Assembly (NCBI RefSeq): GCF_900542875.1 | Contig: NZ_UQPH01000002.1 | From: an uncultured Eubacterium sp. | GTDB lineage: Bacteria > Bacillota > Clostridia > Oscillospirales > Acutalibacteraceae | Length of the DNA: 64,000 nt | Reading direction: 5' to 3' (one strand) | Shown: in pieces, positions 32,478 to 41,830 of the stretch | How positions within the stretch are numbered: the first letter of the stretch is position 1 | How the letters are laid out: each line of letters opens with the position of its first letter | Made by a program: the position numbers and the translations under genes | Notes under the pieces: model-generated | What the model saw: the letters and a program-made list of their open reading frames with translations, nothing else | The model's database searches: none | Told to the model about the DNA's origin: nothing

Positions 32478-33911
32478 ATGGTACAGGATACGGCACAAAA
32501 GAAGTATCTTAATTTTAAGGAGATTGCGGCTTATTCTCTGGGTCTGTTCGGATTTCAGGCGATAGTCGGACTCTTAAACAGTTATCAGGCGGAGTTTGAC
32601 GGCTCGATTTTGGGAGCTAATGTTTCGGTTGTTGCAATTCTTATTTTGGTTGCGAAAATCGTGTCTGCCGTTGCCGACCCCGTTGTGGGAAATTTGGTTG
32701 ATCGTTCAAAGAGCAAGATGGGTAAGTTTAAGTCGATGATAGTTTACTCGCTTGCACCGCTGCTCATTTTTACTGCGGTTGTGTTTATTGATGTTCCGTT
32801 TAAGGAAAATAAGACAGCAACCTATGTTTGGATTTTTGTTACATATCTTATCTGGAACATTGCGATGACAATGGGTGATGTTCCGTCGCAGGGCATTGCC
32901 GCCGCTCTGACGCCCAACCCGACAGAGAGAACCAATGTTGTCTCTATTTCAAACACCTTTAAGCAGGTTGGTTTCAGTGCGTGCGTTGTAATTGTCCCCA
33001 TAATTTGTCTTATCATTCCGGGCGGCTCTAAGGTATTTGTTAAATCGGGCGAGACCGATACTCCTATGATTGCGTCGGAATATTTGGGCACCGCCGTTCT
33101 TACTGCCGTGCTCGGCTGTATTCTCTTTGCTCTCATTCCGATGATTAATAAGGAGAGAGTAACCGTAAAGAATACGGAAAAAACCACTGCTAAGGATATG
33201 GCTTATGCGCTTAAAAGCAATGTGCCGTTTATGCTTGTTATCATATCGTATTTTCTCGGCTTCGGCAGGCAGATGGCTATGGGAATTCAGGTTCAGGCGG
33301 CTACCGTTATTTTGGGCAGCCAAAATCTCGTTGCCGTGCTCGGTATAGTTACCGCCGTAGGTTCTATGATAAGTATGGCGCTCTGTCCGCTTCTTATTAA
33401 GAAAACGGACGAGAAAAAGGCATATATAATTCTTTCCGTTTACGGCTTTGCCGCTTCGATTTTCTCATTTGTTATCGGTAGTCTTTGGTTTAAGTCTCCC
33501 GAAAACTCGGTTCTTACCGTTTTATTCTATGCAAGCCTTTTCCTTATCGGCTTGCAATTCGGTGCAGTAACTCTTATGCCTATGATTATGACCGCCGATT
33601 GCGTGGATTATTATGAGTATAAGACAGGCAAGAGAATGGAGGGAACCTGCTATTCCATCCTTACTCTCACTATCAAGGTTTGTCTTGCACTCGGTACTGC
33701 CGTAGGCTTGATTTTCGTTCAGGCTTCGGGCTATTATGACGGACTTGCAACCGGTTCGTTTGATATAAAGACAAAGAATATTATCTTTTTTGCATATACG
33801 GCATTGCCCGGAATTCTTGCGTTGCTTTCGATTATTCCTATGTTTAAGTATGACATAGTCGGAGATAAGAAAAAGGAAATTACAAAGGCACTTGCAGAGA
33901 AGAGAAACTAA
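32478..33911 (+). CDS. MFS transporter, GPH:cation symporter family (second copy in the window)
   Basis: GPH signature DPVVGNLVDRSKSKMGKFKSMIVY. 12 TM helices. Confidence 0.75.
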   Translation: MVQDTAQKKYLNFKEIAAYSLGLFGFQAIVGLLNSYQAEFDGSILGANVSVVAILILVAKIVSAVADPVVGNLVDRSKSKMGKFKSMIVYSLAPLLIFTAVVFIDVPFKENKTATYVWIFVTYLIWNIAMTMGDVPSQGIAAALTPNPTERTNVVSISNTFKQVGFSACVVIVPIICLIIPGGSKVFVKSGETDTPMIASEYLGTAVLTAVLGCILFALIPMINKERVTVKNTEKTTAKDMAYALKSNVPFMLVIISYFLGFGRQMAMGIQVQAATVILGSQNLVAVLGIVTAVGSMISMALCPLLIKKTDEKKAYIILSVYGFAASIFSFVIGSLWFKSPENSVLTVLFYASLFLIGLQFGAVTLMPMIMTADCVDYYEYKTGKRMEGTCYSILTLTIKVCLALGTAVGLIFVQASGYYDGLATGSFDIKTKNIIFFAYTALPGILALLSIIPMFKYDIVGDKKKEITKALAEKRN

Positions 33912-34012: not shown

Positions 34013-34705
34013 TTATTTTACGACATCTTTACTGTTTGCGTAGATTTTGTGCATACGTTCATCGTCAAAGTGATTGTCGAGATATTCTGAGACTGCATTG
34101 CTTGCAGGAATGCCTGCGTCTCTTCTGTCCATTCTGAATGCGGCAGCTCCCGAAAGGATGCAGTCACATACAAAAAATACGATGAAAACGCCGACGAATA
34201 CTTTGCTGAATTTAACAGGTATTTTATCTACAAGTTTCGACATAAGAGGATATACGACTTTAATCCAAAATATCCCCAGCACTCCCCAGAACAGAGAATA
34301 CAAAAGGCAAACTCTGCCGTTTATGTTAAGCGGAACATTGCTGTAGTCCCACGCTACCGAACCGAACAAAATTTCCTGACCCAGCGAGCATATGTATTCT
34401 GTCACTGTGCCGGCAACATAAGATGCAAGAAATATAGTGGACAGTTTTGCGTCTTTGAGTTTGTAAAGCACCAGGGTGAGTATTACCGCACCCATACCGT
34501 ACGCTACCGAAAGGTGGCTGTAAACAAGCGACTGCCTGGATTCTATGTAGCCGTGGCGGATAAAGCACCATACCGTCTCCACAAGCCAGCCTACCTCACA
34601 GCTTATGAAAAATATCCATACTGTCTTGTTAAAGGTCAGCCTGTCGTTAAATTTTGAGGCTTGAACCGTTGTATTATTTTTTTCTCTCTTTAATACGTCA
34701 ACCAT
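34013..34705 (-). CDS. Hypothetical polytopic membrane protein (possibly putative-ABC-transporter type IV / DUF1113-like)
   Basis: ~5-6 TM helices. No soluble catalytic motif recognised. Confidence 0.4.
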   Translation of the reverse strand: MVDVLKREKNNTTVQASKFNDRLTFNKTVWIFFISCEVGWLVETVWCFIRHGYIESRQSLVYSHLSVAYGMGAVILTLVLYKLKDAKLSTIFLASYVAGTVTEYICSLGQEILFGSVAWDYSNVPLNINGRVCLLYSLFWGVLGIFWIKVVYPLMSKLVDKIPVKFSKVFVGVFIVFFVCDCILSGAAAFRMDRRDAGIPASNAVSEYLDNHFDDERMHKIYANSKDVVK

Positions 34706-34728
34706 AATTTCTTCCTCTTTTATTATGC

Positions 34729-35276
34729 TTATCGGACGTCTCGTATTTTTTGTGTGGTATATGCGGCGGTGATTATCTTGCTTATACCCTCAAGCACACA
34801 ACCGAGGCCGTACAGCCTTGCAAGCACGCTCAGACTTTCTATCGGGCAAAAGATTAAAAGTATGCCCAAAGCCATTGATATTACGGAAACTGCAAGCAGT
34901 GCGCCCCAAGCCTTCAGTCCGAATTTTTTTGAATCAATCGACGCCTGAACGGAAAACAGACTGCTTGCCGTTATTATTATTCCTGTTATAGTGCTGAAAA
35001 ATGACAGCACCCAACTCGTTTTTGCTATGAATATAATTCCGATAATTATTGCGAGTATACCGAGCGCCAGGTCAAACTGAAAGGCTATGTTGTACCTGTC
35101 GTCGGAAAAGTAGGCGCAGATTTTTATTGTGCCGAGCATTATTGCAAATACGCCGATAATACAGCAGATTGCTCTCATTGATATTTGCGGAAAGATTATT
35201 AATATCAGTCCCATAATCGAAAACAGAACGCCTGCACAGATGTAGGCTGTTTTTATTCTTTTCAAGTATTTCAAGG
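34729..35276 (-). CDS. HdeD-family (DUF308) acid-resistance-type membrane protein
   Basis: Repeated small GxxxG/A TM pairs typical of HdeD. Start reassigned to TTG 35274, which has RBS GGAGG 7 nt upstream. The N-terminal 50 aa of the longer track ORF are low complexity. Confidence 0.5.
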
Positions 35277-35317
35277 TGTTACCTCCGAGAGTTATATAAA
35301 GGTTAAAAACGCAAAAA

Positions 35318-35360
35318 CACCGACACGAATACGACAGACTATGATTCGTGTCGGTAAAAC
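35318..35360 (-). terminator. Intrinsic terminator downstream of the tetR-family gene (minus strand)
   Basis: 12-bp perfect stem accgacacgaat/attcgtgtcggt followed on the minus strand by gtttttgcgttttt. Confidence 0.55.
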
Positions 35361-35574
35361 GGTCAATTTGGTATAAGTAAGAGGGGGAAATCAGACTTGA
35401 GGAGAAAAAATATAAAGAAAATCCAAATAACATGGATAGCCTGAATCTTAATTAAATTGACCGATAGCCGAGTATTTATCTCTGCTACGGCTTTATTAAA
35501 TCATATACTTGGCAAAAACAAAACTGTCAAAAAAAGAGAAATATGCAATATTTGCACATTTCCCTTGTTTTGTA

Positions 35575-36138
35575 CTAATCTTTTTTTATTACATTTATTG
35601 AATTTTCTATATTCTCGGGGAATATCTTGCCCAGTTTCTTTATGAAATCCTCCGGATTTGTTTTCATTCCCAACTGCACCCATTCGGAAAAGGTACCCGC
35701 AATGGCATGTTTGTAGAATGTCGAGATTATTCTTATGTCTTCTTCACACATGGTGATACCTTTTTTCTCGCATATGATTTTCATCTTATTCTCGATTATT
35801 CTGCCTATGCCGTTTGCTATATAGAGATTTATTTTGTCCGCATATTTGGAAGAGAATATGTTTGATATAATATTTTTATTAATCAGCATACTGCCTGCCA
35901 CCTGCTGAAAGGCGTTCTCCCACGAAAAATCGTCGCTGTCGTTCTTTATTACCTCGTCGAGCATATTGTCAAATGAGTCCGACAGTACCTCGTAAATGTC
36001 GTGATAGTGGTAGTAAAAAGTATTTCGGCTTATGCCGCATTCGTCGATTATATTTCTGACCTTAATGCTGTCGAGCGGTTTTGTCTGTAAAAGCCCCAGC
36101 ATAGTCAGTTTTATTTCCTTTTTAGTAAACTGCTGCAT
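35575..36138 (-). CDS. TetR/AcrR-family transcriptional regulator
   Basis: N-terminal TetR HTH (IKVRNIIDECGISRNTFYYHYHDIYEVL). It is divergent from the ABC exporter operon. Confidence 0.8.
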   Translation of the reverse strand: MQQFTKKEIKLTMLGLLQTKPLDSIKVRNIIDECGISRNTFYYHYHDIYEVLSDSFDNMLDEVIKNDSDDFSWENAFQQVAGSMLINKNIISNIFSSKYADKINLYIANGIGRIIENKMKIICEKKGITMCEEDIRIISTFYKHAIAGTFSEWVQLGMKTNPEDFIKKLGKIFPENIENSINVIKKD

Positions 36139-36266
36139 ATTTACCTCTTTGGCATTATCATTGTCATTGAACTAATATTATATCATAATTCTGACATTTA
36201 TGCAATAATCGGCAAATGCTTGTTTTTGAAATCGGCAAAAAGAAATAACAAACATTTAACTTTTAT

Positions 36267-36296
36267 ATTGACAAGTGTATTTCTGTGTGATAGTAT
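36267..36296 (+). promoter_or_regulatory. Sigma-A promoter of the ABC exporter operon (TTGACA, 17-nt spacer, TAGTAT)
   Basis: Sequence ttgacaagtgtatttctgtgtgatagtat, ~40 nt upstream of the leader-ORF RBS. Confidence 0.55.
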
Positions 36297-36338
36297 TGGA
36301 ACATATTTACAGATTAAATTTATCGGGAGGTGTAGTTC

Positions 36339-36443
36339 GTGAGACAGCATTATTCATACAGACTTCGTTATTTCGTACGTTCAAATGAGAATAATTTGCC
36401 CTGCGATAAAACACCTTTTGGCAGGGTAAGACGCTTGCCGTAA
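36339..36443 (+). CDS. Candidate 34-codon leader peptide (GTG start) of a transcription-attenuation leader
   Basis: Strong RBS GGGAGG 8 nt upstream of GTG 36339. ORF VRQHYSYRLRYFVRSNENNLPCDKTPFGRVRRLP. It is followed by a hairpin ccctgc/gcaggg and an intrinsic terminator that lies upstream of the real ABC gene start. Confidence 0.4.
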   Translation: MRQHYSYRLRYFVRSNENNLPCDKTPFGRVRRLP

Positions 36444-36482
36444 GTTTTTATTATAGTTATTTATTGTCGTAAAGATGCTGTA

Positions 36483-36518
36483 AAACGCTGTCGGTTTGCC
36501 GACGGCGTTTTTGTTTTT
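36483..36518 (+). terminator. Intrinsic terminator (attenuator) inside the 5' leader of the ABC exporter genes
   Basis: Stem aaacgctgtcgg/ccgacggcgttt (one G-U pair) followed by tttttgttttt. The RBS GGGGGAG and ATG 36532 lie immediately downstream. Confidence 0.65.
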
Positions 36519-36531
36519 GGGGGGGAGAAAA

Positions 36532-38361
36532 ATGAGATTTATACAGATTGATAAGGAGCAGGCTGATGTGCCTGTTGTAAAAAATGTAATATATGCGCTG
36601 GGCTTGGTATGGCGTGCCGATAAAAGGCTGATGATAGGATATTTTATGCAGGAGGTTTTCGGCAATGTATTTGTATGGTTTGTGCAGAATATATTGTTTC
36701 TTAAAGTTTTGCTTGAGATTATCACGGGCAACAGAGATTTCGGTATGTACTGCCGCTGTCTGATTATCTTTGCCGTGCTGTCGGTACTTGATAAAATCGT
36801 TACTTGGAGCGGAATGAGAATTGAAAAAAGAGCGACTAAAAATGTGCTTAAAAATATAAACAATATGATATTTGAAAAGGCACAGTCGCTTGATATTTCC
36901 TGTTATGAGGACCCGTCTTTTTATGATAAATACCAAAGGGCAACCTTAGTGGCGACCTCGGGATATTTTGATATTATAACTTATGACTTTGTGAGTATGC
37001 TGTCGGGGATTATATCCCTAATTTGCGTGCTTTTTACAGTATCGAGCATAAATCCCGAGTATCTGCTGTTTTTGGTGCCTATATTTTTGGTGTTTATCAT
37101 AGAGACGGCAAAGAGCAAGTATGTATACAAGCGTGATTTGGAGATGACGACGAATAACAGGGTCAAGGCGTACATTCAGCGTACCGTTTTTCTGCGTGAT
37201 TACGCAAAAGATTTAAGAACGTCAAATATCTTTTCCGTTTTGATGAGTCGTTTTGAGGGTGCGATTGAGGCAAATATAGTTATACTGAAAAAATACGGAG
37301 TGGGTCTTTTTGTTTACAGTATGATAAGTTCGTTTTTTGAGGAGTTTATTCCGGTAATCGGAACTTACGCTTATGCGGGATATGAGTTTGTAAACAAAGG
37401 GAATATGAGCGTTTCGGGTTTCAGCGTTGTGCTGTCTTCGGTTTCCTCCGTCAGAGACGTTACGCTTGATATTACTCAGTGTTTTGACGAGATGAATCAG
37501 ATGGCTTTGTATTTCCAAAACCTAAAGGACTTTTTTGATTACGAGCCGAAGATTGTGTCGGGTGATAAAAAGGCGGGAAAATTCGAGAGCCTTGAATTTA
37601 AGAATGTATCGTTCAGGTATCCGTCTGCACAAAAAAATTCTTTGAGCAATGTCAGCTTTAGGCTGAATAAGGGTGAAACGCTTGCCGTTGTCGGAATTAA
37701 CGGAGCGGGCAAGTCAACGCTATTAAAACTTATGCTTAGGTTTTACGACGCTACCGAGGGCGAGGTGCTTTATAACGGTGTGAATGTAAGAGAGTATGAT
37801 TTGGCGACTTACAGAAATGCGTTCGCCACCGTGTTTCAGGATTATAAAAATTTTGCGCTGTCGGTTTATGAAAATGTTATGTGCAAGCCATGCACCGATG
37901 ATGAGAAAAGACTCGCTGCACAGGCTCTTAAAGATTCGGGAGCGTGGAGAAAAATATCGACTTTATCAAACGGCGGCGATACCGTGCTGACAAAGGAGTT
38001 TGACGAAAACGGTGCAGGACTTTCGGGCGGCGAAAACCAAAAGGTATCGACCGCAAGACTGTTTGCCCGTGATTTTGAGGTGGCTGTTCTTGACGAACCG
38101 AGTTCTGCTCTTGACCCCGTTGCAGAGAGTGAAATGTATGACAGTTTGGCTCGTGTGACCGAGGGCAAGACGGTGATTTATATATCGCACAGGTTGTCGA
38201 GCGCAACTCTTGCCGATAGGATTATTGTGCTTGACGGCGGCAGGATTATCGAGAGCGGAACGCACGGCGAATTGATGGCGCTCGGCGGAAAATACAGCGA
38301 GATGTTTTCGCTTCAGGCATCCAATTACAGCAGCGAGGAGGCAGAGAATTATGAAAATTAA
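36532..38361 (+). CDS. ABC exporter half-transporter (N-terminal TMD plus C-terminal NBD), subunit 1 of a heterodimeric pair
   Basis: Six-TM exporter domain. Walker A GINGAGKST, ABC signature LSGGENQKV, Walker B VLDEPSS. Start set at ATG 36532, downstream of the attenuator terminator. Confidence 0.85.
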   Translation: MRFIQIDKEQADVPVVKNVIYALGLVWRADKRLMIGYFMQEVFGNVFVWFVQNILFLKVLLEIITGNRDFGMYCRCLIIFAVLSVLDKIVTWSGMRIEKRATKNVLKNINNMIFEKAQSLDISCYEDPSFYDKYQRATLVATSGYFDIITYDFVSMLSGIISLICVLFTVSSINPEYLLFLVPIFLVFIIETAKSKYVYKRDLEMTTNNRVKAYIQRTVFLRDYAKDLRTSNIFSVLMSRFEGAIEANIVILKKYGVGLFVYSMISSFFEEFIPVIGTYAYAGYEFVNKGNMSVSGFSVVLSSVSSVRDVTLDITQCFDEMNQMALYFQNLKDFFDYEPKIVSGDKKAGKFESLEFKNVSFRYPSAQKNSLSNVSFRLNKGETLAVVGINGAGKSTLLKLMLRFYDATEGEVLYNGVNVREYDLATYRNAFATVFQDYKNFALSVYENVMCKPCTDDEKRLAAQALKDSGAWRKISTLSNGGDTVLTKEFDENGAGLSGGENQKVSTARLFARDFEVAVLDEPSSALDPVAESEMYDSLARVTEGKTVIYISHRLSSATLADRIIVLDGGRIIESGTHGELMALGGKYSEMFSLQASNYSSEEAENYEN

Positions 38362-40153
38362 AAAAGAAAAAAATGAACATTCGCTTCTTTCAAATATGCT
38401 GTTTTTTGTCGGCTTAATGTTTAAGGCTTCCCCGCTTTTGGTTATCGGCGAGCTTTGCTGGGGTATACTTATGAATGTTCCGAGCAGACTGATAAGCGTT
38501 ATCGGAGTTAAATATATCATTGATGTTATGACTTCGGGCGAGAGGGTATACCGCATATTTTGGGCAGTCGGCATTATTGCCGCCGTGATTGTTTTCAGCA
38601 GGGTTATATCGTGGCTTTTTCGTGAATTTTTCTGGAATGTCGAAAAGGAAAAATGTTATTTTGCCCTTAATAAGGAACTGTATGAAAAAGCAAAAAGCCT
38701 GGACTTGGAATCATACGACAACCCCGAATTTTATAACAGCTTTATTCTCACTATCGAATCGTCGAGCGATAATATCCAAAACCTTTTGGGATTGATAAGA
38801 AATTATTTCGGCAATGTCGTTGCGCTCATAAGCGTTGCCTCCGTGCTTGCCGCCATTGATCCTCTTTGCCTTTTGATAATTCTTGTAAGCATTGCGGCGT
38901 TTATGCCGCTGTCAAAGGTTATCGGTAATTTGCAGACCCAAAGGCAGATAGAAAACACTCGCTATCATAGGCGAAGCGATTATTTTCAGCGTATTTTTTA
39001 TCTTCAGGATTACGCAAAAGAGGTCAGAATGAATAATATTCATCCTCTTTTGATTGACAGGTATAATGACGCCGCCGATGATGTTATTAAAAATCAGGAT
39101 AAGTATTGGAGCAAGATTTCACTTCTCTACTGCATACAGGAAATAGGCGTTCAGGTTGTGGGCATTATGCTTCTTATGCCGCTTTATCTCGGCTATCTTG
39201 TTCTTGTTAAGCAGTCGATTACGGCAGGCGACTTTGTGGCAACCTTTAACGGCGCTTACTCTATTGCGGTGAGCATTAATTTTCTTACCGTTTGGGCTGT
39301 CGCACGCTTTGAGGAGAGGGCTAAGATTATAGAAAAATACCGTGGCTTTCTTAATGCCGAGCCAAAAATCACCGACGGAGAAAACCAAGCAAGCGTTACC
39401 GAGCCTAAGGAAATTAAAATCGAGAATATGTCATTTACTTATCCCGGAAGCGATAAGCCGACTCTAAGTGATATTAATCTTACAATTAAACCGTACGAAA
39501 AGATTGCACTCGTCGGTTTTAACGGAGCAGGCAAGACAACGCTTACAAATCTTTTGCTCAGGCTTTATGATGTAAGCGAGGGCAGTATTAAGATAGACGG
39601 CGAGGATATACGCACCGTTAAGACATCGGAGCACAGAAACCGCTTTGCCGCTGTGTTTCAGGATTTTCAGATTTTTTCCTGCAATGTCGGCGAAAATGTC
39701 GCTCTTGACAGCAGTTATAATTCAGATGATGTAAAGAGTGCACTCAATCACAGCGGCTTTGATAAGAAACTAAAAGGCGGCACTAAAACGGAACTTCTTC
39801 GGGAATTTGATGACGAGGGCGTTATGCTTTCGGGAGGCGAGGCACAGAAGATTGCCGTAGCCAGAGCATTTTATAAAAAATGTCCTTATGTAATTCTTGA
39901 TGAGCCGTCGGCGAATCTTGACCCGATTGCCGAGTATAATCTAAACCGTGCCATGCTTGAGGCGGCGGAGGATAAGACGGTTATATTTATTTCGCACCGC
40001 CTTTCCACCACCGTTAATGCCGATAAAATCTATGTTATGGAGCAGGGCAGAATTATCGAGAGCGGTTCGCATAAGGAACTAATGAGCAAAAACGGAACAT
40101 ATGCCGAAATGTTCAACCTTCAGGCAGAGAAATATGTTGACAAAGAAAATTAA
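38351..40153 (+). CDS. ABC exporter half-transporter (TMD plus NBD), subunit 2 of a heterodimeric pair
   Basis: Walker A GFNGAGKTT, signature LSGGEAQKI, Walker B ILDEPSA. The start overlaps the upstream gene end. Confidence 0.85.
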   Translation: MKIKKEKNEHSLLSNMLFFVGLMFKASPLLVIGELCWGILMNVPSRLISVIGVKYIIDVMTSGERVYRIFWAVGIIAAVIVFSRVISWLFREFFWNVEKEKCYFALNKELYEKAKSLDLESYDNPEFYNSFILTIESSSDNIQNLLGLIRNYFGNVVALISVASVLAAIDPLCLLIILVSIAAFMPLSKVIGNLQTQRQIENTRYHRRSDYFQRIFYLQDYAKEVRMNNIHPLLIDRYNDAADDVIKNQDKYWSKISLLYCIQEIGVQVVGIMLLMPLYLGYLVLVKQSITAGDFVATFNGAYSIAVSINFLTVWAVARFEERAKIIEKYRGFLNAEPKITDGENQASVTEPKEIKIENMSFTYPGSDKPTLSDINLTIKPYEKIALVGFNGAGKTTLTNLLLRLYDVSEGSIKIDGEDIRTVKTSEHRNRFAAVFQDFQIFSCNVGENVALDSSYNSDDVKSALNHSGFDKKLKGGTKTELLREFDDEGVMLSGGEAQKIAVARAFYKKCPYVILDEPSANLDPIAEYNLNRAMLEAAEDKTVIFISHRLSTTVNADKIYVMEQGRIIESGSHKELMSKNGTYAEMFNLQAEKYVDKEN

Positions 40154-40206
40154 TAAAGCCGAATTTTTAAGCCGAGCACTTTATGGTGCCCGGCTTTCTT
40201 GCTGCT

Positions 40207-41703
40207 TTACGTTATTTTTTGATAAAGATAAAAATTGACTTTTTGACCTTGGTATTCGTATGTTACTGTTTTTACCGCTTTGTACATTGTTTTATCATAG
40301 TTGCCCTCAGAGGCATAATTTATTATGAAATCATAATCGCCGTTCTTTATTCCGCTTATATAATGCTCTGTCATTTCGGGGAATGCGGCGTTAAGCGGAG
40401 AAACATATTTATAATCTTCAAAACAATCCATATATTTATAAAACGGTGCGACATCTATACAGTTTCCCGTAATCTTCGGATTTTCGACACCCGAATCTTT
40501 TATGTATTGCGAAAATTGATAATACGGGGTTTCTTCTTCATCCTCGCCCAAATAATGTATTGTGCTTGAGGTTGTAAAAGATATTGTAAGACCTATTGCA
40601 ACAACCGAGATGACTGTTAAAATATTTAACTTTTTGATGCTTGATTTATCAAACTTGTTAAATAGATTATCAAAGGCGTATATTAAAGCCATTGCACCCG
40701 GAATCGCAAATATAAACATCTGTATGAAATAGTAAGAAATTTTACCGCCGTTTCCGATAATGTATATAAATATAAATAAGACGATAAAAAGCAGTAGGTT
40801 ATATAAGAATAGTTTTTTAGGTATTTTTTGGTGCTTGCTTTTTTTAATCAGCAAAGAAGATACAAAAGATATTATCGGCATTGCCAGATATATAAAGCAA
40901 CGGTATATTCCAAACAATATGCCTGTCGATAAGGCTAATTTTTTATAATATTTTCCTTGCTCGATAAAGTAAAAATTAATAAAATCGGTAAAATAATTAT
41001 TTATTCCGAAGTATATTATCCATGGTATTGTTGAAATCAAAACTCCGCCGGCAATGATAAGACATGTTGAGAATAATTTTTTGAAGTTCTTTTCTTTTAT
41101 CATATCGACGGCAGGTATAATAAACCATGCAATATAAATTCCCAAAAGAGTGTACTTACTCCAAAGGACACAGCCGGATGTAATTCCTACAATCAAATAT
41201 TCATAAGGTTTTATCGAAATGTTTTTGTATACATACCGAAAGCCTATATAGTAAAGATATACAAAAAACGGCATCATCATAAGTTCTGCCGTATCGCCGC
41301 CGTAGGTGTTAAGAGGACAGCAATACATAAGACAGGCAACAAAAAAGGTTGAAAGCAGAGCTCTTTTTGAGTCATATTTTAACGAAACGGTTTTATATAC
41401 AAAGCAAAGGGATATAAATGAAAAGAGAATTTCCGTAAAATACAATCCTATGTACGAACTGTCGCTTATCAGTGAGGCTATTCCGTATATGACAAATAAG
41501 AACGGTCCCTTTTGGTCTATTACATCTCTGTATAAAAGCTGTCCGTCAAACATTCTGCGACCGACCTCAAAGATAACGGTTACATCCGGTGAATTGTTAA
41601 AACCGTAAAGCGGTGAGCATTTTGAAAAAACGGTAATAAACGAAACCGATATTAACAGAATTGCAAAAAGTACCGTGTGCTTTCTTTTTCTCGTTTTTAT
41701 CAT
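40207..41703 (-). CDS. Large polytopic membrane glycosyltransferase-like protein (GT-C fold; ArnT/PMT/YfhO-like)
   Basis: ~12 TM helices across the N-terminal 400 aa plus a C-terminal ~110-aa soluble domain. Adjacent to a GtrB-like GT2 gene. Start set at MIKTRKRK (RBS GAGG 8 nt upstream). Confidence 0.5.
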   Translation of the reverse strand: MIKTRKRKHTVLFAILLISVSFITVFSKCSPLYGFNNSPDVTVIFEVGRRMFDGQLLYRDVIDQKGPFLFVIYGIASLISDSSYIGLYFTEILFSFISLCFVYKTVSLKYDSKRALLSTFFVACLMYCCPLNTYGGDTAELMMMPFFVYLYYIGFRYVYKNISIKPYEYLIVGITSGCVLWSKYTLLGIYIAWFIIPAVDMIKEKNFKKLFSTCLIIAGGVLISTIPWIIYFGINNYFTDFINFYFIEQGKYYKKLALSTGILFGIYRCFIYLAMPIISFVSSLLIKKSKHQKIPKKLFLYNLLLFIVLFIFIYIIGNGGKISYYFIQMFIFAIPGAMALIYAFDNLFNKFDKSSIKKLNILTVISVVAIGLTISFTTSSTIHYLGEDEEETPYYQFSQYIKDSGVENPKITGNCIDVAPFYKYMDCFEDYKYVSPLNAAFPEMTEHYISGIKNGDYDFIINYASEGNYDKTMYKAVKTVTYEYQGQKVNFYLYQKIT

Positions 41704-41830
41704 AACAGAGCCTCGTAACAGATTTTTTATTAATATTAACATAATATACAAATTTTGTCAAAAGTAACTAATAATCATATTGATATATTTGAGTTTTTAG
41801 TATATAATTGACTTAAATTTGTATAGGGTG

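Follow-up and report, generated by a model that had tools for sequence, protein, structure and literature searches.

A probable leader-peptide transcription attenuator upstream of an ABC exporter operon in uncultured gut Clostridia

What decides whether a pair of genes for ATP-binding cassette (ABC) half-transporters is transcribed, when a promoter, a small open reading frame (ORF) and an intrinsic terminator stand in succession before the first of them? The question is raised by a 64,000-nucleotide stretch (hereafter the window) of contig NZ_UQPH01000002.1, assembly GCF_900542875.1, from an uncultured Eubacterium sp. of the Acutalibacteraceae. An earlier note on this DNA had proposed attenuation by ribosomes on a leader peptide, as for Bacillus subtilis bmrB-bmrCD, with a divergent TetR regulator as a second layer of control. 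Our analysis of orthologous loci indicates that positions 36268-36531 probably constitute a leader-peptide-dependent, ribosome-sensing transcription attenuator that gates read-through into the two-gene ABC exporter operon. The core of the earlier reading is thereby backed by sequence comparison; its assignment to BmrCD, its TetR layer and the codon-level conservation it looked for are not. The elements on which the argument depends are these:

36268-36296, plus strand: sigma-A-type promoter, with -35 element TTGACA at 36268-36273, a 17-nucleotide spacer and an extended -10 element, TGaTAGTAT
36323-36341, plus strand: S1, the leader Shine-Dalgarno (SD) region, spacer and GTG start codon; 5' strand of the SD:anti-SD helix and proposed anti-antiterminator
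36339-36443, plus strand: leader ORF of 34 codons, fM-RQHYSYRLRYFVRSNENNLPCDKTPFGRVRRLP, with stop codon UAA; equivalents occur in relatives
36343-36348, plus strand: AT2, GACAGC, an alternative antiterminator strand forming an inverted repeat with its partner GCUGUC at 36487-36492
36396-36429, plus strand: H2, a hairpin inside the ORF, UUGCCCUGC/GCAGGGUAA, pairing 36396-36404 with 36421-36429 at -14.1 kcal/mol
36403-36424, plus strand: S2, the proposed pivot, comprising anti-SD ACACCUUUU at 36411-36419, GCGA at 36403-36406, and UUGGCAG at 36418-36424
36431-36452, plus strand: 3' end of the ORF, stop codon and U-run, ACGCUUGCCGUAAGUUUUUAUU, the counterpart of the conserved box 5 of the leader family
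36482-36519, plus strand: intrinsic terminator, 13-bp stem AAAACGCUGUCGG/CCGACGGCGUUUU, loop UUUG and U-tract, -19.5 kcal/mol
36520-38361, plus strand: ABC1, a half-transporter of 609 residues, with ribosome-binding site (RBS) GGGGGGGAG at 36520-36528 and ATG at 36532
38351-40153, plus strand: ABC2, a half-transporter of 600 residues, overlapping ABC1 by 11 nucleotides

The sigma-A promoter, the strong GGGAGG RBS, the 34-codon ORF starting at GTG and the short hairpin all lie where the earlier note had placed them, and the peptide is as it was quoted. The -10 hexamer TAGTAT occupies 36291-36296, with its TG just upstream at 36288-36289, and transcription would start near 36303. The promoter that feeds the attenuator is constitutive-looking; it is kept in L001, L081 and L082 (orthologous loci are given by L numbers), where the -10 element is TAATAT, and analogous promoters lie upstream of leaders at orthologous loci. 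Promoter-like matches are unenriched (5 seen vs 6.5 expected from shuffles), and terminator-like matches are enriched (4 seen vs 1.1 expected); what carries the most weight is the comparison with relatives. The RBS at 36325-36330 lies 8 nucleotides 5' of the GTG at 36339. The loop of H2 is 16 nucleotides long and holds the anti-SD sequence; the change A36423G in L082 retains the H2 pairing as U-G. A second hairpin, at the end of the ORF, spans 36419-36440 (-9.7 kcal/mol).

An intrinsic terminator followed by the RBS and start codon of an ABC gene was likewise borne out. The arms of its stem, 36482-36494 and 36499-36511, are followed by UGUUUUU; the stem begins 38 nucleotides past the leader stop and ends 20 nucleotides before the ATG of ABC1, which is at 36532 rather than at 36533. 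Both half-transporter genes are present as described. ABC1 has its Walker A motif, LSGGE, VLDEPS and H-loop, and the 11-nucleotide overlap suggests translational coupling of the two genes. A scan of the plus strand from 36297 to 36770 found no promoter-like site. Since the terminator abuts the RBS of ABC1 with no promoter-like site after it, expression of the ABC genes would need read-through of the terminator.

Searches with the ABC1 protein as query provided 160 loci, 80 of them in species-representative genomes and 80 in metagenomes; these contain 66 distinct leaders, which form 26 subgroups. The host organisms are uncultured Clostridia of the gut that carry the labels Acutalibacteraceae, 'Candidatus Fimenecus', 'Eubacterium sp.' or Oscillospiraceae. 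Among genome loci alone, 52 of 80 show the succession of SD, ORF and terminator; with metagenomes included the count is 71 of 160. It comprises a strong SD (mostly AAAGGAGGCAGAAA), a start codon that is ATG in 62 and GTG in 4 of the 66 leaders, an ORF of 25-44 codons and an intrinsic terminator. Across the family the terminator stem starts 13-43 nucleotides after the leader stop and ends 15-40 nucleotides before the ABC start, the latter linkage being kept in every leader-bearing locus. A terminator with a T-run lies at -65 to -20 from the ABC start in 51 of the 52 leader-bearing genome loci; the T-run of L007 is interrupted.

The small ORF itself is conserved upstream of orthologous ABC pairs, as the earlier reading had required. 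Its frame is open in 26 of 26 subgroups, vs 3 and 4 of 26 for the other two frames, and the joint chance of 26 open frames is about 2e-26 (a product computed with 0.064 stops per codon). The stop codon always falls at the same RNA landmark, even at loci where the frame differs. At the other orthologous loci no leader is present and a promoter lies immediately before the ABC gene, so the leader appears to be an evolutionarily mobile add-on.

Evidence for alternative structures comes from a swap test, in which one representative was taken per subgroup, the SD region of each was duplexed with every ORF, and 20,000 permutations were made. The SD regions of all subgroups find a complementary stretch in the 3' half of the ORF that follows them, with compensating changes between subgroups. 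The mean energy of the cognate S1:S2 duplex is -15.8 kcal/mol vs -12.7 kcal/mol for non-cognate combinations, and the cognate mean was reached by 0 of the 20,000 permutations (p = 5e-5). The covarying SD/anti-SD haplotypes include GGCAGAA/UUCUGCC, GGCAAAA/UUUUGCC, GGUAAAA/UUUUACC, GGUGAACAUA/UAUGUUCAC, GGUGAACACAA/UUGUGUUCAC and AAGCGGAC/GUCCGCUU. RNAalifold, applied to 20 leaders of the main class, independently returned only two helices, one between the SD and a segment designated box 3 and the other the terminator; the first shows two double changes from G-C to A-U, and the second has eight pairs changed on both sides. Counts for individual pairs were dropped in favour of these two analyses, because concatenated segments aligned with MAFFT were misregistered at box 3 in about one third of the rows.

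The same part of the ORF also matches the terminator. By the swap test, each ORF pairs with its own terminator 5' arm and loop at -12.2 kcal/mol vs -10.9 kcal/mol for non-cognate partners (p = 8.5e-4). In about 40 of 52 leaders the terminator arm finds its best partner in the box-3 segment, with matched changes: UUUCUGCCCC:GGGUAGAA, UGCCCCGAGAG:CUGUCGGAG, UGCCUCGAAAAGUG:CACUAUCGAGG and UUUUUACCGAC:GUCGGUAGAAA. In 61 of the 66 leaders, 4 or more nucleotides belong to both the anti-SD and the antiterminator strand. In most members of the family, then, the 5' arm of the terminator (S3) can be paired by S2 or by nucleotides adjoining it, and this sharing implies three exclusive states, S1:S2, S2:S3 and S3:S4, and these results together support, across the family, the mutually exclusive terminator and antiterminator folds that had been predicted.

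In the proposed mechanism, S1:S2 would be the anti-antiterminator, S2:S3 the antiterminator and S3:S4 the terminator. With no ribosome on the leader, or with a ribosome at the end of the ORF, S1:S2 would form, the terminator would fold, and transcription would stop near 36512-36519. A ribosome held back early in the ORF (about codons 1-16 in the window) would sit between S1 and S2 and mask the SD. This would leave the downstream strand available for pairing with the terminator 5' arm, and RNA polymerase would read into the ABC genes.

This scheme was modelled by refolding representatives of the 26 subgroups with a ribosome footprint placed at each codon. Over these subgroups, the probability that the terminator 5' arm pairs with upstream sequence is 0.43 with no ribosome and 0.63 when a ribosome covers the SD and first codons; it is 0.66-0.67 for a ribosome anywhere upstream of S2, when helices are barred from spanning it, and 0.34-0.43 for a ribosome in the last 14 or so codons. 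For the window leader the corresponding values are 0.38 with no ribosome, 0.70 for codons 1-16 and 0.14-0.21 for codons 30-33. The family is built of two modules, the SD with the N-terminal part of the ORF and S2 with the stop codon and terminator, joined by a linker of variable sequence and length, and most substitutions fall at codons 7-16. An architecture of two modules with a variable linker between them agrees with the ribosome-position logic proposed here.

The pairings can be placed in the window with differing confidence. The window SD, AGGUGU at 36328-36333 with its GGG flank, pairs with ACACCU at 36411-36416 plus UUU, and the duplex of S1 with 36402-36422 has an energy of -17.2 kcal/mol; S2 lies at -42 to -21 from the end of the ORF, as in other subgroups. 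In the near-identical strains L001 and L082, only a few leader positions depart from the window sequence; U36333C and A36411G are two of these differences and together convert a U-A pair to C-G, with the replacement of Thr by Ala as the cost. The minimum free energy (MFE) fold offers a different anti-SD (ACGCUU.CCG, 36431-36440), which we did not adopt; the ACACCU pairing is preferred because U36333C is compensated at 36411 and not at 36431-36440. Both pairings may nevertheless occur. Overall, 36431-36452 has three pairing options: the SD (in the MFE fold), GGCAGG at 36420-36425, or the terminator 5' arm at 36482-36495.

Three antiterminators of similar strength are candidates in the window. 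The first pairs UUGGCAG at 36418-36424 with CUGUCGG at 36488-36494 (-11.6 to -11.7 kcal/mol); it both adjoins and overlaps the anti-SD, an arrangement it shares with the other leaders of the family. The second, AT3, pairs GCCGUAAGUUUUUAU at 36437-36452, which includes the stop codon, with 36482-36495 (-11.1 kcal/mol); in the folding model it becomes the MFE partner once a ribosome sits upstream. The third, AT2, pairs GACAGC with GCUGUC (-12.5 kcal/mol) and is confined to the window lineage. Of the folds expected for the window, therefore, the SD:anti-SD helix is backed by a compensatory pair, and no single antiterminator stands out. Our confidence in any one particular antiterminator here, or in any particular inducer, is low.

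Several forms of the leader vary this layout. In L049 (-354 to -264) and L061 (-397 to -307 from the ABC start), a complete leader ORF (MTNRW.NNRK...SCSCD) stands 170-220 nucleotides farther from the ABC gene than usual, and an insertion appears to separate the attenuator from that gene. The long-type leaders L016, L019, L021, L022, L075 and L079 share a conserved CCAATG(G/A)ATTCT ('PMDS/PMNS') 7-8 codons before box 3. This sequence holds an in-frame internal ATG after a weak SD-like CAGGAT, and initiation there would yield a peptide of 20-22 residues. A different upstream ORF (uORF) of 26 codons, MVLALIINCYSELRHRRSTVLFALIR, with SD GAGGAG, is found in L031 and L045 (about -96 to -15 from the ABC start), and the upstream sequence of L111 looks alike; its coding region contains a terminator hairpin (GGCACCGT CGCAGT ACGGTGCT), a bmrB-like layout in another branch of the ABC orthologues.

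A number of points weigh against a ribosome-sensing attenuator and should be set out together. The ribosome-barrier model consists of thermodynamic folding with assumed footprints. None of the three antiterminator candidates in the window exceeds chance when tested alone (best z = -0.2), and at -11 to -12.5 kcal/mol all are weaker than H2 (-14.1) and the terminator (-19.5). No convincing antiterminator was found in the L003 subgroup (-7.5 to -9.3 kcal/mol), whose members, with 77% ABC identity, are the second-closest leader-bearing relatives. The leader peptide shows no purifying selection at the codon level: within subgroups there are 90 non-synonymous vs 23 synonymous changes, and variable sites are spread almost evenly over codon positions 1, 2 and 3. 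The check on orthologous leaders suggested in the earlier note thus found no codon-level conservation, and selection of the kind seen on proteins was rejected. In addition, several conserved nucleotide boxes are translated in two frames. The main-class boxes 'UUUCUGCC(CC)' and 'CCCAUUCUUGCGAUU' with its immediate stop are read in different frames at different loci, giving FCPE vs SAT and SCD* vs LAI* as C-terminal readings, so that RNA-level function could dominate. A trans-acting factor at the leader is possible.

These observations lead to the rival that survives best, although we regard it as improbable: that the leader is mainly a structured cis-regulatory RNA, riboswitch-like or protein-binding, in which a ligand or protein stabilises one fold and the ORF is secondary, serving for example to block Rho or tune folding. 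Besides the mostly non-synonymous changes and the reading of the boxes UUCUGCC and 'CCCAUUCUUGCGAUU' plus stop in two frames, the surroundings of the stop codon could be cited for it. Box 5, which is CCCAUUCUUGCGAUU plus stop in main-class examples such as L046 and L022 and ACGCUUGCCGUAA in the window (36431-36443), lies within a covarying helix (CCCA:UGGG, UCCUG:UAGGA, ACUG:CAGU) that also encloses a small, variable hairpin. No RNA partner for box 5 emerged from duplex swap tests, in which it showed no cognate advantage with the ABC RBS, the 5' untranslated region, the 5' part of the ORF or the spacer. A structured RNA with a secondary ORF fits poorly, however, with a strong, well-spaced SD followed by a frame open in every subgroup and a stop held at a fixed landmark, with a conserved long-range helix that engages the SD itself, and with the lack of any Rfam match in the window or five related loci.

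It also fails to account for an amino acid bias at the N-terminus that exists in the ORF frame only. Over residues 2-15, Tyr makes up 12.4%, Arg 11.8% and Asn 10.2%, vs 4-5% each out of frame (Tyr 4.0%). The pattern is shared by the window leader (MRQHYSYRLRYF), by MKMRYYSRPYYY from relatives with 77% ABC identity, and by MKNYTTYYRHY from a relative at 80%. What is kept in the leader, to judge from these comparisons, is the act of translation, the position of the stop, the RNA pairings and a Tyr/Arg/Asn-rich N-terminal composition. The most likely trigger for a ribosome-sensing attenuator of this kind would be any condition that slows elongation on these N-terminal codons, whether a ribosome-targeting compound or a shortage of charged tRNA.

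A narrower version, somewhat less probable than a structured RNA, keeps the same attenuator and makes amino acid supply its signal, with stalling as in trp or pheL leaders at clustered Tyr (and Asn/Arg) codons rather than through antibiotics. The excess of Tyr is in keeping with this: the window leader has Y5, Y7, Y11 and F12, L003-type leaders have six Tyr in the first 17 residues, including YYY, and L083 has four in the first 11; the modelling, moreover, predicts antitermination from stalls in the first half of the ORF. In most subgroups, however, the Tyr codons are scattered, and L017 and L019 have almost none early. The genes controlled are a generic ABCB-type exporter pair unlinked to aromatic amino acid metabolism, and the precedent for an ABC exporter is drug-induced stalling (PMC4191407).

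A dedicated sensor with a specific input seems similarly doubtful. It might take the form of nascent-peptide or small-molecule arrest on the Tyr/Arg/Asn N-terminus that reports an exporter substrate (a gut xenobiotic or metabolite), of a response to charging or modification of the tRNAs reading NAY codons, or of a trans-acting factor on the 'CUUGCGAUU-stop' box, which is kept in two reading frames. Two specific candidates were considered and set aside. An enrichment of queuosine-decoded NAY codons would be expected to include Asp and His, but only Tyr and Asn are enriched, and the idea remains speculative. The macrolide arrest motif has the pattern '+x+', which R-L-R at residues 8-10 of the window leader would fit; [RK]x[RK] occurs in 8 of 26 subgroup leaders, about the expectation from composition, and was not taken as evidence.

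The weakest alternative, that the 34-codon ORF encodes a small protein in its own right, equipped with promoter, SD and terminator, and the ABC genes are expressed separately, or, as a variant, that the divergent TetR 200 bp upstream is the main regulator and the terminator incidental, is very hard to reconcile with the 20 nucleotides between terminator stem and ABC1 ATG and the absence of promoter-like sites on the plus strand from 36297 to 36770, with the close linkage to the ABC start in all leader-bearing loci, with a peptide that is not conserved as a protein would be, and with the absence of the TetR gene from other loci.

The genes around the leader unit in the window bear on the TetR variant and on the history of the locus:

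32478-33911, plus strand: MFS_2 gene
34013-36138, minus strand: genes for the TetR protein, a DUF308 protein and an ABC_trans_CmpB-like protein, between the MFS_2 gene and the leader
35575-36138, minus strand: divergent TetR-family gene (TetR_N and TetR_C_8), with its own terminator-like hairpin at 35566-35534
36207-36239: direct repeat of AATCGGCAAA, two copies 23 nucleotides apart, between the TetR gene and the leader, upstream of the -35 element
40183-40569, plus strand: ORF of 128 residues without a Pfam match, right after ABC2
40207-41751, minus strand: PMT_2 glycosyltransferase gene

The TetR gene lies about 200 bp upstream of the leader ORF. By tblastn, a homologue adjoins the ABC/leader unit in four loci only, all of the window lineage, and the upstream neighbours at other loci are MFS (MFS_2), hydrolase or MATE (MatE) genes. 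TetR as a conserved partner in the mechanism of the family was therefore rejected, and the second control layer that the divergent regulator had been thought to add finds no support in conservation. No clear palindromic operator was found over the window promoter, only the AATCGGCAAA direct repeat, which may be a regulator binding site, and weak inverted repeats. In L022 the MFS_2 gene is immediately 5' of the leader, and in the window it is about 2.6 kb upstream; from its position in L022, the TetR, DUF308 and CmpB-like genes look like an insertion in the window lineage. The 128-residue ORF is nearly wholly overlapped by the antisense glycosyltransferase gene and is probably spurious.

Two further features recur upstream of the orthologous ABC genes. 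The first is an operator-like box directly 3' of the -10 hexamer, found as a palindrome, GTTACGTAAC, in 15 loci (e.g. L022:2783, L064:2740) or in the form GTTAC(N2-8)CGTTCAAC in 18 loci (e.g. L047:2960, L058:2955, L073:2782). It occurs with or without the leader ORF and terminator, is lacking in the window, and suggests promoter-level control by a putative DNA-binding regulator. The second, in 20 loci (L023, L030, L032, L035, L040, L042, L044, L049, L051, L055, L058, L059, L061, L123 and others), is a mini-ORF, M(K)LDIKSEQK, with a strong SD (GAGAGGTA), as at L058:2746-2870. A long GC-rich hairpin and U-run follow it directly (AACCCTCCGAG...CTCCGAGGGTT ATTTC). Lying about 150-650 nucleotides upstream of the ABC start in leader-bearing and leaderless loci alike, it may encode a small peptide independently or form the tail of a different regulatory unit.

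The closest parallel to the proposed attenuator is bmrBCD of B. subtilis, in which a heterodimeric ABC exporter is under ribosome-mediated transcription attenuation by drug-induced stalling, with the terminator and alternative structures (nucleotides 60-162) inside the 162-nucleotide bmrB ORF (PMC4191407). The inducers of bmrBCD are ribosome-targeting antibiotics (lincomycin, chloramphenicol, erythromycin). Both systems have a short translated leader ORF directly 5' of two ABC half-transporter genes in one transcript, an intrinsic terminator before the first ABC gene, predicted terminator, antiterminator and anti-antiterminator folds, and separate promoter-level control. They differ in the length of the leader, 34 codons in the window vs a 162-nucleotide ORF, and in the position of the terminator, which in the window begins at 36482, past the end of the ORF at 36443, and across the family follows the ORF after a gap of 13-43 nucleotides. 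They differ also in the anti-antiterminator, which in the window family would be the leader's own SD, and in the promoter-level regulator, which is not AbrB.

The exporters themselves give no sign of a closer relationship. BmrCD is a heterodimer with one degenerate ATP site, whereas both nucleotide-binding domains in the window are consensus (Walker A GxxGxGK[ST], LSGGE, Walker B LDEPS and H-loop SHR). NCBIfam models for named ABC exporters all score far below cut-off, the best being of MsbA/HepA type, and the best 60 PDB sequence matches listed include ABCB1, ABCB4, Ste6, Sav1866, MsbA and TM288 and none named BmrC or BmrD. Orthology to BmrCD is unsupported on these three grounds, judged apart from any direct comparison with the BmrC and BmrD sequences. 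With the terminator outside the ORF and both domains consensus, the likeness to BmrB/BmrCD that the earlier note had seen is better described as analogy than as homology.

In its four-segment logic the window family resembles trpL, pheL, hisL and the ilvB uORF, where an early ribosome leads to the antiterminator, and a finished or absent ribosome to the terminator; in those leaders, too, the peptide is not conserved as a protein. The RBS of the E. coli trp leader has likewise been described as pairing with a distal segment. Unlike the classical attenuators, the window family has no run of any one regulatory codon and controls an exporter rather than a biosynthetic operon, its segment 1 is the SD and start region rather than codons within the ORF, and its S2 lies 21-45 nucleotides upstream of the stop, where a terminating ribosome would not cover it directly.

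Antibiotic-sensing leaders form a third group for comparison, including ermC/ermB/ermD, msrDL-msrD, vmlR, hflXr/lmo0919 and topAI toiL (PMC10314930, PMC9226507, PMC6310831, PMC12121999). These likewise place a short uORF before a drug-response gene and regulate through ribosome position, and several end in a Rho-independent terminator. In the window family, by contrast, no known arrest motif is demonstrable, the R-L-R of the window fitting '+x+' as such triplets do about as often as composition predicts, and the controlled genes encode membrane exporters rather than ABC-F factors or methyltransferases. The window leader family is not among the motifs named in the 'uORF candidate' class of RNA-motif surveys (PMC11109978). 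Rfam searches, made with permissive E-values on the region and also on the whole window and five related loci, gave nothing at threshold; local matches were terminator look-alikes with E of at least 0.026 and less than half the gathering score. No description of the leader family was found in searchable literature or Rfam, an absence that applies to those collections only.

Attenuators of this class are well known, and for that reason a specialist would find the result useful rather than surprising. From the comparisons made here, the window leader family is very probably real and conserved, and its special feature, the apparent action of the leader's own SD as anti-antiterminator, is well supported. 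If the reading is correct, widespread uncultured gut Clostridia, represented by metagenome-assembled genomes of Acutalibacteraceae, 'Ca. Fimenecus' and 'Eubacterium sp.', would switch an ABC pump through ribosome stalling and not through a DNA-binding repressor, and what has been a single well-studied case, bmrBCD of B. subtilis, would extend to the human and animal gut microbiota. With an SD that doubles as anti-antiterminator, RNA boxes kept across frame shifts and a linker of variable length as its standout features, the set of 26 diverged natural variants is a ready mutational series for the evolution of leader-peptide attenuators. The same reading, if true, would single out these pumps as efflux systems of gut commensals that drugs or xenobiotics may induce.

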